From the IMG/VR virus record IMGVR_UViG_2541047882_000006: 33,679 nt of DNA. The stretch is one strand, 5' to 3'. Within the stretch, counting starts at the first letter, position 1. Each line of letters opens with the position of its first letter. This DNA comes from a virus. Taxonomy: Duplodnaviria; Heunggongvirae; Uroviricota; Caudoviricetes. Of the stretch, positions 798 to 27,671 are shown piece by piece. A program made the translations under genes and the position numbers. Under the pieces are notes generated by a model that worked only from the letters and a program-made list of their open reading frames with translations, had not been told where the DNA came from and did not search any database.

Positions 798-2600
798 TAT
801 GCAAGCCTCACAATATAGTTAAATGCGATGTTTTTGACGGTGTTTTCCGCGTTACCAGCAGCGTTAACGGTGATGGTGTGTCCATGTGAGCCAATCGCAA
901 CAGAGTGCGTATGAGCACCAATACCGACAGTATGCGCGTGTGCACCTGCAGATGCTGCTGTGCCGGACAGTGAGTGGCTATGATTACCATCTGTACTGGT
1001 ATTAGCTAACGCCCCCGTAGACATACCTACTGAGCCTTGTACACCCCAGGTATTTTGACCTGAGCTTGTATAACCATATTGATAAGTATCTTTAAAAACA
1101 CTGGGGTTAAATCGACGGCCATCTCTATGGCTGTGATTACCAGCTGCATTCGTGCTGCCACTTAAACTATGGGTATGCGCACCAGTGTTATTCGTGGATT
1201 TAGTGCCGTAATCAAACGACGATGTGGTTTTCGTCCCCAAATCCGTACTGGATGCGCTGGCGCTGTGGGTGTGCGATTTAATGCCGTCCTGTTCCTGAGA
1301 CAATACGGCACGACCACTGGCAGGTTTACCCTTAATCGTCCAGCCACGCATATCAGGGATCACGCCTGACGGATAAGCAGCTGCAAGTTTCGGGTAAGCA
1401 GATTTGTCAAAAGTCTGCCCCTGCATCACGGCATAACCAGACGGAACGGTATCTGATGGCCACGGGATTGGTGCGCCGACTGGGTAGCTTTCTGGTGGAA
1501 GATTTTTCGAGGTATAAACTTCTGCCCAGTCTTCCTCAAAACCATAACCGTCTCTTGAAGAACGGTAGAACAGACCTCTATTTCTGTAATGTGCCTTCAT
1601 CTGCAGGGTGCGGCAACTTCCGACTCCGGTATAGAAGTTAACCAGAATATAGCTGTCGCCAGAGCGGGTGACATTGTAAGCGCCTGATTCGGCATTCCAG
1701 GGAACGCCACCATCAGCATCCGCATATGACCCTGTTGCCCTTCTTGCGAAAGCGGCAACATGCGCAGCGGTTAAAGTGATATCAGTAGAACCATCAAATG
1801 GAACACCGGATATTTTTCTTGCAGTCTGAAGTTTTGTAGCAGTTGCAGCATTACCAGTGGTGTTCTGGTTACCCGTAGTGTTTACACCTGGAAGGTTAAT
1901 ATTTGCAGAACCGTCGAAAACAACTCCACCGATAGATCTTGCCGTCTGCAATTTCGTGGCTGTACTTGCATTACCATTCAATGAACCAGTTAATCCACCT
2001 GTAACAGACAACGGACCTGAAACTGTTCCTCCGGTTGTTGGCAGCGCTCCAATATCTGATGGTGTAGGTTTCTGATGTGAGCTATACATCGTATAAACAA
2101 CACCACCGGTAACGCTGGAAGGCTTACTCGCTGAATATGTTGGCGAGGTATAAATAGAAACTGACGCATTTGTAGTACAATCCCAATGGATATTTACACT
2201 CGTCGCATAATTGCCAATCTCAACGTAAATATCATATGTATCGCCGGATGTGTTGATCCAGGCGAAATTCGTTAATCCGACGGCTGTACGCTTCCACAAA
2301 GCTCCGGTAATCCCTTTGGGGTTTCCATTGCCTGCTCGTAGAACCAGTTCTGAAATGCCTGCCTGCTGTGGGGAGCCGACGTTGTAACCAGCGCCACCAA
2401 TCAATGCGATGTAAACGATGGAACTCGCTTGTGGCATGGTAACCGTTGCCAGTTTGAACCACCCTGCCCCGCCAGAGAAAGAGATCGTTACTGAATTTAA
2501 AGTGCCAATATCTTTCGGTGTTAATGTTATATCCGCAGTCAGTGCTTTCCCGTTAACTTTTCGGTTAGATGGTACCCTGCCATTCGCATTGTCATTCGCT
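797..2600 (-). pseudogene. stfR: side tail fiber protein, C-terminal portion only (5'-truncated)
   Basis: Longest start-initiated ORF is 797-2437 (546 aa) with tail-fiber-type repeats ([40 protein letters not shown]). The frame stays open about 55 codons further upstream with no ATG/GTG/TTG and runs into the J remnant in the +1 frame. K-12 StfR is about twice this length as I recall it. Confidence 0.75.
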
Positions 2601-2603
2601 GCT

Positions 2604-2780
2604 TTAACTGCCTTCAGTGTCCAGCACTGGCGTACTGTTCAGCAGCACGCTTTTTAATCCATCCACCGGACCTTCAACCGGCCCTTCGCTGATGGCATCG
2701 ATCACACTCAGCAACTGCGTGGACTTCAGGTTGTCCTTCGCTTCGCGCGGGGTATGCCCCTTACTGCTGCCTTTACCCAT
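2604..2780 (-). pseudogene. remnant of lambda J-type central tail fiber gene (first 58 codons, then stop)
   Basis: Reverse complement from 2780 translates [58 protein letters not shown]-stop, matching the N-terminus of lambda gpJ as I recall it and diverging right after TEG. A full J gene would encode over 1100 aa. Confidence 0.8.
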
Positions 2781-2840
2781 TCGTCATGCTCCATAAACGA
2801 CAAAACCGCCCGGAGGCGGTTTCACATAAAACATTTTGCA

Positions 2841-3488
2841 TCAGCGACCAATCACCACAACCTGACCACCGTCCCCTTCGTCTGCCGTGCTGATCTCCTG
2901 AGAAACCACCCGCGACCCCACACGCATTTCACCGTACAGAACAGGCAAAACATTGCCCTGAGCAACCATGTTATCCAGTGAGGAAAAATAGGTGTTCTGT
3001 TTGCCGTTATCTGTACTGGCTGCCGTGGACGTCCTGGCTTTCGGTGCCAGCATCTGCGCCACTCCGCCCAGGACCATACTGGCCCCTGCCGCATACATGC
3101 CCGATACAGCCGCGGCACCCAGCCAGCCCACAGGGTTCCACCATGCCACCGCAATCAGCGCCGCCCCAAGCACCACCTGAAACACACCGCCACTTTTAGC
3201 TCCCACCAGACGCGGCACGATGTGGATCACGGCACCATTTGCCAGCGGCTCATTAAGACGGGCAGACAATTCGGTTTCACCGGCATCACGCCCGGCAATG
3301 CGTACCTGATACCAGCCGTCGCTCAGTTTCTGACGAAACGCCGGGATCTGTATGGCCAGCGCCCGGATGGCTTCGGACCCCGTTTTCACTCGAAGGTCGA
3401 TGCGGCGGCCAAATCGTTGTAAATCCCCGTAAAGGCAGATGCGTGCCATGCCCGGTGACGCCAGAGGGAGTGTGTGCGTCGCTGCCAT
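2841..3488 (-). CDS. tail tip assembly protein I (lambda gpI-like)
   Basis: 215-aa track ORF; N-terminus MAATHTLPLASPGMARICLYGDLQRF and C-terminus near-identical to lambda gpI as recalled; sits between K and the J remnant in lambda order. Confidence 0.9.
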   Translation of the reverse strand: MAATHTLPLASPGMARICLYGDLQRFGRRIDLRVKTGSEAIRALAIQIPAFRQKLSDGWYQVRIAGRDAGETELSARLNEPLANGAVIHIVPRLVGAKSGGVFQVVLGAALIAVAWWNPVGWLGAAAVSGMYAAGASMVLGGVAQMLAPKARTSTAASTDNGKQNTYFSSLDNMVAQGNVLPVLYGEMRVGSRVVSQEISTADEGDGGQVVVIGR

Positions 3489-15470: not shown

Positions 15471-15685
15471 TATTCACCTCTCGCAGCCTTGCGCTTATCT
15501 TCTTTAATCTTGAAATAAAGGTTTGTCAGGTACGTCAGCAGGCCAAATACCAGACTACCCAGCACACCGATTGCAGCCCACTGTGACGGAGTTACTCTAT
15601 CGAGCAACTGTAAAAACCAGTAGCCAGCACTGCCTGCGGAGGTGCCGTAGGCAATGCCTGTTGAAATTTTGTCCATGGATTTCAT
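15470..15685 (-). CDS. holin (phage 21 S-type pinholin)
   Basis: Track ORF 15470-15742; start placed at [14 protein letters not shown] (dual-start motif MKSM); two transmembrane segments; C-terminal [13 protein letters not shown] recognised as S21-like. Confidence 0.8.
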
Positions 15686-24810: not shown

Positions 24811-24995
24811 TCACCTTTCAACCAACGGTGATAGATATTCTGCTGATTGTTCCAGTCCTTGCCTGGAACCAGGGGCAATTCGCCGCCCCCCTGGCGCAGA
24901 TATTCTTCAGTAATTGCATTGGCTACCCATGCCTGCCCTTTTTCGGCTGCTAGGGCAAACAACACTGATTCGATGTGCTCATGCTTGATTTTCAT
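24639..24995 (-). CDS. YdaT-like protein, possibly C-terminally altered by a deletion junction
   Basis: 118-aa track ORF directly downstream of ydaS; N-terminal MKIKHEHIESVLFALAAEKGQ; 3' end overlaps the DnaC-like frame in another frame. Confidence 0.45.
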   Translation of the reverse strand: MKIKHEHIESVLFALAAEKGQAWVANAITEEYLRQGGGELPLVPGKDWNNQQNIYHRWLKGETKTQREKIQKLIPAILAILPRELRHRLCIFDVQILRSAENLVPEKTIWRRLSGIAC

Positions 24996-25017
24996 GAATC
25001 ATTTGCCTCTTGATGTT

Positions 25018-25314
25018 TCAGGTATGATCAAATGAGGATTTGTTACTGTCATTTAGTTGCTTCACTGACATATTCTGCGAACAACATGCCGAACGTCGTA
25101 AATATGACCAGTCAATATCAGGACGAAGTTCTTCGCACAGAACCTCACCTCTTGTTGCACGTTCAATTGCTGGACATCTCTCGGCAGGCAATTGACGTAC
25201 CCCTTTGATCCATTGATTTACGCTTGGAGGTGATACACCTAAAAGCCTAGCCATTGCTGATTGCCCACCGACAACAGCACAAGCTTGCTTGAATGAATAG
25301 TTCTCTTTTTTCAT
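25018..25314 (-). CDS. ydaS: Cro/CI-type HTH regulator YdaS (Rac)
   Basis: 98-aa track ORF; HTH MARLLGVSPPSVNQWIKG; divergent from racR across an operator-rich spacer; recognised as K-12 YdaS. Confidence 0.8.
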   Translation of the reverse strand: MKKENYSFKQACAVVGGQSAMARLLGVSPPSVNQWIKGVRQLPAERCPAIERATRGEVLCEELRPDIDWSYLRRSACCSQNMSVKQLNDSNKSSFDHT

Positions 25315-25339
25315 CGAATGAACTCCAAAAACACACAGA

Positions 25340-25430
25340 AATATTAGGCGACGCCTAACGCAATTGTCAATAGGCTGTGCCTAATGCGGTAAGGGTAGGG
25401 ATTGCCTAATGTAATGCGCATAGGAGAATA
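25340..25430. promoter_or_regulatory. divergent racR/ydaS control region with palindromic operator-like sites
   Basis: TTAGGCGaCGCCTAA (25344-25358), ATTGtCAAT (~25363-25371), TAGGCtgtGCCTA (25371-25383) and further GCCTAA half-sites in the 123-bp spacer between the two start codons. Confidence 0.6.
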
Positions 25431-25437
25431 TTAAGCA

Positions 25438-25914
25438 ATGCTTAGTGGTAAAGACTTAGGCCGAGCGATAGAGCAGGCCATTAACAAAAAAATCGCATCG
25501 GGATCCGTCAAATCAAAGGCGGAGGTCGCACGCCACTTCAAAGTCCAACCACCATCAATTTATGACTGGATTAAGAAAGGCTCTATAAGTAAAGATAAAC
25601 TTCCAGAATTATGGCGTTTCTTTTCTGATGTTGTTGGTCCAGAGCATTGGGGGCTTAACGAATACCCCATACCAACCCCCACCAATTCAGATACAAAAAG
25701 TGAACTTTTAGATATAAACAACCTTTATCAAGCAGCCTCTGATGAAATAAGAGCGATTGTAGCTTTCCTGTTATCTGGAAATGCTACAGAACCAGATTGG
25801 GTTGACCACGATGTTCGCGCCTATATAGCAGCGATGGAAATGAAAGTGGGTAAGTATCTGAAAGCTCTAGAATCTGAACGGAAAAGCCAGAACATCACAA
25901 AAACTGGAACTTAA
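25438..25914 (+). CDS. racR: Rac prophage repressor RacR
   Basis: 158-aa track ORF, recognised as K-12 RacR (same length as recalled); HTH near the N-terminus. Confidence 0.85.
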   Translation: MLSGKDLGRAIEQAINKKIASGSVKSKAEVARHFKVQPPSIYDWIKKGSISKDKLPELWRFFSDVVGPEHWGLNEYPIPTPTNSDTKSELLDINNLYQAASDEIRAIVAFLLSGNATEPDWVDHDVRAYIAAMEMKVGKYLKALESERKSQNITKTGT

Positions 25915-25989
25915 ACTTATATGGTCTGACGGAAAACTCCTGGATTCCGTTATTTAACCCCCCCATCACTTTCTGCTGTCGCCATCACC

Positions 25990-26045
25990 TATTAGGTTAC
26001 GCTCAAAACATTAGGCATAGCCTATTGACAATCAATTAGGCATTA
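25990..26045. promoter_or_regulatory. second operator-like cluster downstream of racR (candidate leftward-operon operator/promoter)
   Basis: TAGGCataGCCTA (26012-26024), ATTGAcaaTCAAT (26024-26036) and TTAGGCAT (26036-26043): same half-site family as the racR/ydaS spacer. Confidence 0.5.
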
Positions 26046-26367
26046 CCTATAGTTCCAGCATACCACCCACCCCGCCCCACAGAACGCCGGGCAATACTTC
26101 GAGTTACCAGGCAGTGGTAAGGGGTTAAGTAGCCAGCCCGAGGCGTATGAATATGACGGCGGGATTCAAATTTTGCAGTGCAGCAGTTAGTTCCGCCACC
26201 CGGCGTTAAGGGGAGAGATAAGATGGTGCATTACGAAGTAGTTCAGTATTTGATGGATTGTTGCGGTATCACTTACAACTAGGCTGTGCAGGCTTTACGC
26301 AGCAACGACTGGGATCTCTGGCAGGCAGAAGTCGCTATACGTAGCAACAAGATGTGAGATTCGCAAA

Positions 26368-26523
26368 ATGCAAAAAATCGACCTCGGCAACAACGAATCC
26401 CTGGTGTGCGGCGTGTTCCCCAACCAGGATGGAACGTTCACTGCCATGACGTATACCAAAAGCAAAACATTTAAAACCGAAACTGGTGCGCGCCGATGGT
26501 TGGAGAAGCACACAGTAAGCTAA
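26368..26523 (+). CDS. small Rac protein (YdaF/YdaG-like, 51 aa)
   Basis: ATG at ~26368; translates MQKIDLGNNESLVCGVFPNQDGTFTAMTYTKSKTFKTETGARRWLEKHTVS; convergent with sieB, 3' ends overlapping. Below the track cutoff. Confidence 0.5.
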   Translation: MQKIDLGNNESLVCGVFPNQDGTFTAMTYTKSKTFKTETGARRWLEKHTVS

Positions 26524-27008
26524 CGATTAAAACGTCTACTCCTGCTGTTCCAGAATAACTTCATAAAATGGGAGTATTTTTCGGTGACGAGATAATAAGA
26601 ACAGTTTGCGCTATCACTCTGATGTTGAATGATGCCCTTCCGTTCTAATTTTTTCATAACCGGGTTACGGCAAGGAGAAGTGATAATAAGATTTCCTGTT
26701 TTAAGGAAATCTTTAAATACAGCGATTTCTTTCTCAGATAAACGAAGCAATACTCGTTGCTCTGGTAGTAATGAATAATGCTTTTGAATATGTGCTCGCA
26801 ATCTTGAGAAGGAAATGGCGACCACGAAAGAAAAGGCAAAAACGATAATCTGAAAGAGCCAAGGTATTTCAGTATAAGCATTGAATGCGACAGTAAACTC
26901 TTTCGGTATCAGCCAGAGAGTGAGACCAAAAATGATAATCGTATACATAAGTCTTTCGAGTGGCTCGTTAGCAAAAAGTTTCAACAATGGAGTAAATGCA
27001 TCCAACAT
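26520..27008 (-). CDS. sieB: superinfection exclusion protein B
   Basis: Track ORF 26520-27131; start placed at MLDAFTPLLKLFANEPLERLMYTIIIFGLTLWLIP to give the 162-aa K-12 SieB; membrane protein. Confidence 0.85.
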   Translation of the reverse strand: MLDAFTPLLKLFANEPLERLMYTIIIFGLTLWLIPKEFTVAFNAYTEIPWLFQIIVFAFSFVVAISFSRLRAHIQKHYSLLPEQRVLLRLSEKEIAVFKDFLKTGNLIITSPCRNPVMKKLERKGIIQHQSDSANCSYYLVTEKYSHFMKLFWNSRSRRFNR

Positions 27009-27449: not shown

Positions 27450-27671
27450 ATGATTGCACATCACTTCGGAACTGATGAAATACCACGTCAGTGTGTGACT
27501 CCTGGCGATTATGTTCTTCATGAAGGCCGGACATATATTGCCTCGGCAAACAATATTAAAAAGCGAAAACTATATATTCGTAACCTGACCACAAAAACAT
27601 GCATTACTGACCGCATGATTAAAGTCTTCCTCGGTCGTGATGGTTTACCTGTAAAGGCGGAGTCATGGTGA
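27450..27671 (+). CDS. kilR: killing protein KilR (cell-division inhibitor)
   Basis: Track ORF 27438-27671; start at [14 protein letters not shown] gives the 73-aa K-12 KilR. Confidence 0.85.

Follow-up and report, generated by a model that had tools for sequence, protein, structure and literature searches.

Does the repressor of the Rac prophage act only from the intergenic spacer between its own gene and ydaS, or does it also control a second promoter located on the other side of racR? The question is raised by IMG/VR record IMGVR_UViG_2541047882_000006 (Caudoviricetes), a stretch of 33,679 nucleotides referred to below as the window, which contains the Rac immunity region with 99.6% identity to E. 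coli K-12 and 99.9% identity to strain FORC 064, ydaS being encoded on the minus and racR on the plus strand. Rac resides in K-12 and in many other E. coli, and its left operon encompasses KilR, the RecET proteins on which recombineering is based, RalR, and excision functions. In the current literature, RacR is presented as a regulator of ydaS/ydaT only, acting from the spacer. The initial annotation of the window pointed to operator-like palindromes flanking racR on both sides and likened them to the right (OR) and left (OL) operators of lambda. Here, we evaluate the two motif clusters as the OR and OL sets of a RacR immunity module, in which OL and an associated left promoter (PL) would drive the left operon, and consider this arrangement likely, at a probability of about 0.8, with RacR binding at OL being what we infer from comparative data. 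If so, a RacR-controlled promoter after racR would directly explain the 40- to >70-fold derepression of the left arm described below, and looping between OR and OL would give a lambda-like reason for the octameric state of RacR. The general picture of lambdoid immunity regions is unchanged by such a finding, the layout being an ordinary lambda-like one.

Distribution of RacR Operator Motifs

The ydaS-racR spacer occupies positions 25315-25437, in agreement with the 123 bp given by the initial annotation, and RacR sites within it are known from experiment. Krishnamurthi 2017 (PMC5700373) described GCCTAA/TTAGGC repeats in the spacer and reported three RacR-DNA complexes in the electrophoretic mobility shift assay (EMSA), enrichment in chromatin immunoprecipitation followed by quantitative PCR (ChIP-qPCR), and repression of a ydaS reporter. 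Wisniewska 2022 (PMC9638921) obtained a DNase I footprint of RacR on the spacer with the consensus W-TAGGC-n3-GCCTA-W and mapped three racR promoters, one of them leaderless. Recognition of GCCTAA-type half-sites by RacR, which had been predicted from the palindromes, is thus demonstrated for the spacer side by EMSA and ChIP-qPCR (PMC5700373) and by footprinting (PMC9638921), and the assignment of the spacer sites as RacR right operators is already an experimental fact in the literature.

Every palindrome quoted for the two sides of racR is present in the sequence, and the half-site family said to recur about 100 bp past the racR stop codon does so, the first good site beginning 97 bp after the stop (25914). 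The proposed variable gap of one to three bases did not hold: TAGGC and GCCTA are always separated by three (N3). The whole window was searched for TAGGC-N3-GCCTA (TAGGCNNNGCCTA) with up to one mismatch, which gave six matches against 0.49 ± 0.63 expected, a number reached in none of 100 shuffles; five of the six fall within 25345-26049, around racR. Exact TTAGGC hexamers are similarly concentrated, with seven of the eight present in the window confined to about 700 bp (25344-26041). Allowing two mismatches over the whole window returned nine matches against 9.3 expected, which is the chance level, and the signal consequently consists in the clustering of near-perfect sites. A site at 15648 was rejected as a further operator: it has one mismatch, lies inside an open reading frame (ORF), and fits the chance expectation of 0.49.

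Predicted Promoter Downstream of racR

In the downstream cluster, two sites matching the footprint-derived consensus with N3 spacing are located 25 bp apart. The distal one, OL2 (TTAGGCataGCCTAt, 26011..26025), has a perfect core with no mismatches, and its last base is the first base of a -35 hexamer; OL1 (TTAGGCattACCTAt, 26036..26050), with one core mismatch, resides in the promoter spacer and reaches three bases into the -10 element. The PL-type promoter predicted here on the plus strand (26025..26053) comprises -35 TTGACA (26025-26030), a 17-bp spacer, and -10 TATAGT (26048-26053), scores 11/12 in the promoter scan, and would initiate transcription near 26058-26061. Read from 5′ to 3′, it is almost one sequence with the ydaS promoter PydaS, the analogue of the right promoter (PR): TTAGGCacaGCCTATTGACAATtgcgTTAGGCgtcGCCTAATAT for PR and TTAGGCataGCCTATTGACAATcaaTTAGGCattACCTATAGT for PL. 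A possible weak third left operator, OL3? (TTAGGTtacGCTCAA, 25992..26006), was seen in the sequence as well; it reaches two mismatches in locus L006, keeps its left half and varies in its right half among RacR-type variants, and yields no full palindrome in the other genera examined.

The repressor gene therefore lies between two outward early promoters, one of them predicted, with downstream genes in matching direction, and one consensus recurs at both, OR having four such sites and OL two or three, with overlaps of the -35 and -10 elements. Assignment of the downstream cluster as RacR left operators overlapping a putative strong PL for the kilR/recET operon is strongly supported, because a conserved promoter is embedded between conserved half-sites, because RacR homologues of four other genera are followed by this arrangement too, because the edge of the cassette exchanged between heteroimmune prophages coincides with the predicted start site, because PL analogues occupy the corresponding place in the prophages CP-933P and Qin, and because ydaG, ydaF, kilR, and racC are derepressed in RNA sequencing (RNA-seq) data when RacR falls. 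The lambda-like bracket around racR proposed initially thus gains support on both sides, the right one from published work and the left one from comparative evidence. A literature search for Rac OL/PL (sbcA, RacR regulon, chromatin immunoprecipitation with exonuclease digestion, operator and promoter strings) found no description in accessible papers, and the RacR papers and the 2025 YdaT paper mention neither ydaG/ydaF as direct targets nor sites or a promoter downstream of racR. The putative Rac OL/PL is apparently undescribed, being at the same time expected from the lambdoid paradigm and from two sister prophages (CP-933P and Qin).

The initial annotation had singled out a second family of palindromes, ATTG-N-CAAT, represented by ATTGAcaaTCAAT at about 26024-26036. 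As a separate operator family it is not retained, since it corresponds to -35 TTGACA with flanks at both promoters. One might assign it to another regulator such as YdaT or YdaS, given that the common word ATTGACAAT adjoins operators at both promoters and that YdaT, whose protection covers about 100 bp of the spacer, recognizes AATCAA-type half-sites, AATCAA being present at 26030-26035. However, the common word is itself TTGACA plus flanks, and what is conserved in it is TTGAC rather than the palindromic partner, which L001 (downstream copy), L006, L007, and L010 have lost, with TTGAC kept; a second operator family of this kind is very unlikely. A complete YdaT-box (TTGATT-N6-AATCAA) at the same place was also rejected, as only AATCAA (26030-26035) is found and TAGCCT stands where the other half would be.

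Operators of the ydaS-racR Spacer

PydaS (25341..25370, minus strand) is composed of -35 TTGACA (25370-25365), an 18-bp spacer, and -10 TAATAT (25346-25341), with a scan score of 10/12; the same hexamers are reported in PMC9638921, where the single ydaS start site was mapped and the -10 element mutagenised. The perfect operator O1 (TTAGGCgacGCCTAA, 25344..25358) overlaps this -10 and was protected at the lowest RacR concentration in the DNase I footprint (PMC9638921), and O2 (aTAGGCtgtGCCTAA, 25370..25384), likewise published, adjoins the -35. O3 (gTAGGGattGCCTAA, 25395..25409), with one core mismatch, is one of the “four inverted repeats” of PMC11014345 and is kept in all homologue loci as ATAGGAattGCCTAA. 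O4 (TTAAGCaatGCTTAg, 25431..25445) has two mismatches and covers the racR start codon together with the leaderless racR promoter; an operator overlapping the racR ATG was described in PMC9638921, racR mRNA is leaderless in vivo, and the position of the site is kept at -6 from ATG in every homologue locus. O3, O4, and the weak third downstream site were absent from the initial annotation. O1-O4 share the consensus of the published RacR operators (PMC5700373, PMC9638921) and are those footprinted sites, PydaS being the mapped promoter; the difference is that those studies used the spacer fragment only. The O1/O2 and OL2/OL1 pairs are both spaced 25-26 bp, and the start-to-start distance between the pairs is 667 bp.

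Comparison with K-12 over 24900-26600 revealed six differences, none of them in the named operator half-sites or promoter hexamers, and the block 25960-26080 is identical in K-12. The sole difference within the spacer, at 25388 (G instead of the A of K-12), concerns the initial base of the -10 element of the published minor promoter PracR2 (AGTAAG in K-12). A search of the PDB returned no solved relative of RacR.

Conservation of Operators among RacR Homologues

Variation was assessed in 20 distinct RacR-type sequences from E. coli, E. ruysiae, O157 prophages, and viral contigs. Variable positions account for 3 of 60 in the half-site cores and for none of 24 in the -35 and -10 hexamers, against 7 of 18 in the N3 spacers and 65 of 177 in other non-coding DNA, so that the cores differ from the other non-coding DNA at p = 3.8e-7 and from the N3 spacers at p = 9e-4 (Fisher test). 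Judged by this pattern, half-site cores are under purifying selection and spacers drift. The O157 variant L001, with about 87% nucleotide identity, illustrates this: spacers (GAC to TTA, ATA to GTA) and inter-site DNA are altered, and half-sites are kept at both clusters. The anticipated conservation of the motif in Rac-like prophages is thus observed, half-sites being kept throughout the 20 variants. The core of OL2 is invariant in all of them, and the site is kept in L001, L006, L007, L008, L010, and L011. One further locus, L005, belongs to a 5.2-kb contig of a metagenome-assembled genome (MAG) labelled “Candidatus Nanosynbacter” (Saccharibacteria; JARKOR010000130.1); its RacR equals the E. 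coli protein and its operators are identical, and the contig is most likely a binning contaminant.

RacR homologues from Mixta, Morganella, Klebsiella, Proteus, Achromobacter, and Pigmentiphaga are 71-81% identical to RacR over the N-terminal 80 residues, with the C-terminal part 9-46% identical or replaced. Relative to the start codon, all of these loci contain consensus sites at three positions, approximately -66, -41, and -6. Just 3′ of the repressor gene, Mixta, Morganella, Proteus, and Achromobacter additionally have two sites with a spacing of exactly 25 bp; the pair flanks TTGAC(A/T), and the final two bases of its proximal site double as the start of a TAnnnT -10 element, so that the block GCCTA-TTGAC-N-TAGGC-N3-GCCTA-(-10) is kept in four genera, with plus-strand ORFs following the pair in Morganella and Proteus. 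The downstream pair is present in six of eight independent homologue loci, the other two (L009 and L012) being uninformative or devoid of it.

The C-terminal replacements include an Achromobacter xylosoxidans MAG protein of 365 aa (L011, 1501-2598), which combines the RacR DNA-binding domain (72% identity over 80 residues) with Peptidase_S24 in a fusion. This is a genuine LexA/CI-type domain, and TAGGC-N3-GCCTA operators are kept on both sides of the gene, which implies that one operator specificity pairs with cleavable and non-cleavable repressors in two proteobacterial classes. In Pigmentiphaga (L012), the DNA-binding domain (71% over 80 residues) is followed by another long C-terminal region, the protein having 301 aa. 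Directly 3′ of the racR homologue of Klebsiella sp. R390 (L009), a 391-aa ORF with no assigned function (2129-3304) occupies the place taken by rexAB in lambda and by paaA2-parE2 in CP-933P and, by this analogy, may be a moron or defence gene.

Conservation also bears on the possibility that the downstream palindromes are a racR terminator or else a chance or relic duplication devoid of function. The terminator scan does mark TAGGCTATGCCTA with its T-containing tail on the minus strand, but this match has a 5-bp stem on the strand opposite to racR, and such matches occur at chance (2 against 1.5). No intrinsic terminator was detected on the plus strand over 25915-26060, the only matches being on the minus strand, with stems of 5-7 bp and at chance frequency. 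Since half-site cores are under apparent purifying selection, the pair is kept across genera, and a chance cluster is excluded by the shuffles, this interpretation is extremely improbable.

Exchange of the Immunity Cassette

In heteroimmune prophages whose flanks are the same, the segment 25002-26060 is replaced, and these prophages bear another repressor, another Cro, and other palindromes; in L002, for instance, a GTACAT-type palindrome is present both in the spacer and in the region 3′ of the repressor gene. Homology of such loci to the window ends at 25001, at the ydaT start and its YdaT-box, and returns at 26060-26063, a few bases at most from the predicted PL start. The exchanged unit accordingly comprises cro, OR, the repressor gene, and OL/PL, as in lambdoid immunity regions. 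At the left border, a 30-bp island at the ydaT start (24972-25001), which includes the YdaT-box known from the literature (ATGATTCATGAAAATCAA, minus strand), shows 96.7% conservation in the heteroimmune loci L023 and L138 and thereby marks the left edge of the exchangeable cassette.

Beyond the right border, all these loci share the leader discussed below, and 104 viral contigs were chosen solely by a 21-mer of this leader, giving 57 distinct sequences in which types were counted by eye. At least 12 promoter/operator types were distinguished among them, each with a TTGAC-like -35 and each joining the same leader right after the -10; in several types, words of the promoter region recur 650-1100 bp upstream, at the repressor-cro spacer. 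Most non-RacR types (L024, L028, L086, L098, L137, and others) have an obvious intrinsic terminator, a GC hairpin followed by a T-run, just 5′ of the PL-type promoter. The RacR type has no intrinsic terminator after racR, which fits the Rho-dependent termination reported there.

Regulation of the Left Operon

The predicted PL is located directly 5′ of ydaG (26223..26357), the first gene past it according to K-12 annotation and comparison, and ydaF (26368..26523), which encodes 51 aa and is the second gene of the leftward operon (ORF, K-12 annotation). The toxic gene kilR (27450..27671; ORF, K-12 annotation) follows about 1.4 kb further, past antisense sieB, and is read in the same direction. 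Plus-strand K-12 genes codirected with the predicted PL are ydaG, ydaF, kilR, ydaE, racC, recE, recT, ralR, rcbA, xisR, and intR, and sieB is the sole antisense gene in the K-12 annotation between this promoter and intR. Codon 20 of ydaG (26280) is TAG here and CAG in K-12, and the first gene past the predicted promoter is truncated in this strain. When C.Csp231I lowers racR expression, RNA-seq shows ydaF, ydaG, ydaE, and racC going up about 40-fold and ydaC, kilR, and ralA more than 70-fold (PMC6765115), and Rac recombination genes show zygotic induction.

According to the model that we favor, RacR dimers, shown by others to bind W-TAGGC-N3-GCCTA-W and to shut off PydaS, recognize these 15-bp sites through the conserved N-terminal helix-turn-helix domain of RacR (racR, 25438..25914, plus strand, is a prophage repressor gene by ORF and annotation; 158 aa). 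The four spacer sites overlap the strong promoter of the ydaS (Cro/CII) operon and the weak or leaderless racR promoters, as documented in the literature, and RacR on OL1/OL2 would, with high confidence, exclude RNA polymerase from the predicted PL. Such occlusion would keep ydaG, ydaF, kilR, ydaE, racC, recE, recT, ralR, rcbA, xis, and int silent. RacR was found to be octameric by size-exclusion chromatography in a study of the same group that footprinted the spacer, where “four inverted repeats” in the spacer are described (PMC11014345), and one may speculate that tetramers occupying OR and OL, respectively, are joined by a DNA loop of about 0.65 kb, as for lambda CI. Homologues differ in the OR-OL distance, which ranges between 616 and 1235 bp and keeps no constant helical phase.

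Several observations weigh against this model. Published RacR footprints and EMSAs are confined to the spacer fragment, and no transcript 5′ end is reported around 26060. The discoverers of the octamer explain it by the four spacer repeats, without OL (PMC11014345), and another group ascribes kilR silencing to a Rho-dependent terminator “inside racR” acting on the transcript from the racR promoter; read-through from racR rather than a separate promoter could contribute to the derepression seen by RNA-seq. The third downstream site (25992-26006) is poorly conserved. Pigmentiphaga L012 has no downstream pair in the approximately 825 bp available, and Klebsiella L009 has none either, the 391-aa gene being inserted there and the locus ending just past it.

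Part of these data would also suit downstream sites serving as auxiliary operators only, which aid spacer repression by looping and have no promoter, the left genes being reached by racR read-through: RacR is octameric, kilR lies downstream of a transcript through racR in the Rho-dependent terminator model, and a start site near 26060 is absent from reports. Yet TTGACA-17-TATAGT scores 11/12 and neither hexamer varies among the 20 variants, four other genera and at least 12 other immunity types retain a TTGAC-type -35 with a TAnnnT -10 at the same position, and the positionally equivalent PL933P of CP-933P and dicBp of Qin are active promoters, which makes a promoterless role quite improbable.

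A somewhat better, albeit still low, chance is given to the downstream sites serving mainly YdaS instead of RacR, for example by damping the leftward operon late after induction. The ydaS product (25018..25314, minus strand) is a Cro-like regulator encoded by the first gene of the rightward (PR-type) operon (an ORF named ydaS in K-12), with Pfam scores of 107.7 bits for YdaS_toxin and 36.8 bits for P22_Cro (cutoff 30.2). YdaS was reported as an autorepressor at the spacer, and in CP-933P the repressor PaaR2 and YdaS each repress PL933P about 100-fold (Jurenas 2021, PMC8630535). Against a purely YdaS-directed function, the sites match the footprinted RacR consensus and track the RacR DNA-binding domain across genera, and leftward genes are derepressed when RacR falls. 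By analogy with lambda, it is more likely that both RacR and YdaS bind the downstream sites, which refines the OR/OL model rather than opposing it; YdaS, as a Cro analogue, probably uses the same sites, again by analogy with CP-933P.

Leader of the Left Operon

Right after the predicted PL, a shared non-coding 5′ leader of about 160 nt (26060..26222, plus strand) opens with a C-rich segment; its 3′ end is formed by the ribosome-binding site of the first gene. Its first 30 nt contain 17 C and 4 G (57% C and 13% G). Homology to the leader, starting at about 26056-26068, was found in 3,808 of 5,426 complete E. coli genomes (approximately 70%), and the leader is common to at least 12 heteroimmune prophage types, beginning at the predicted start site in them; a phage with Actinobacillus as its recorded host has it as well, at 76% identity. 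In phage records, the segment is either unannotated or mis-annotated, e.g., as “head-DNA stabilization protein D”.

A search of Rfam 15 with 25900-26600 gave no match at E <= 1. The single-sequence fold of the leader has z = -1.46, leaving a stable conserved structure unsupported, and the consensus fold yields a covariation term of -0.16 with one compensatory pair only, the sequences being too alike for a fair test. We tentatively put forward, as a possibility to which we assign clearly less than even odds, that the leader is an undescribed element acting in cis, for either Rho loading or processivity/antitermination, which sets how far the PL transcript reaches into kilR/recET in prophages lacking N; together with an RacR octamer bridging OR and OL, this would place two layers of control on the left operon. 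Such an element might be the true basis of Rho-dependent kilR silencing.

Comparison with Known Immunity Systems

As in lambda, the repressor gene of Rac lies between two outward early promoters (the left one predicted) with similar palindromes over their -35 and -10 elements, neighbouring sites are spaced by about 24-26 bp, and an octameric repressor is translated from a leaderless mRNA. Rac differs from lambda in the C-terminal domain of RacR, which is of another kind and non-cleavable, in having four spacer sites instead of three, in the short distance of about 0.65 kb between OR and the putative OL without rexAB-type genes between them, and in the absence of a recognisable N gene or nut site after the predicted promoter.

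Further counterparts are provided by other prophages. In Qin, the DicA-repressed dicBp with three operators is a recognised PL analogue (PMC10448788); like RacR, DicA is a short non-cleavable repressor with operator triplets on both sides, and the left promoter drives a cell-division inhibitor operon. The operator sequence of Qin is different, and K-12 Qin has no shared leader at megablast level, the single K-12 match being in Rac, whereas phage Tritos joins a CI-type repressor and the same leader to a dicF-dicB operon. The CP-933P type was identified among the leader-sharing contigs through ParE2, which matches PDB 5cw7 at E = 7e-60. For this prophage, PL933P and OL1-3 have been identified (Jurenas 2021, PMC8630535). 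It differs from Rac in having another member of the repressor family, GTTTAGTAA-type operators, and a toxin-antitoxin pair between the repressor gene and PL. The likeness consists in the equivalent position of PL933P, which joins the same leader right after the promoter, in a PL with the same -35 and -10 as PR, in OL operators that resemble those of OR, and in an octameric repressor (PMC8630535).

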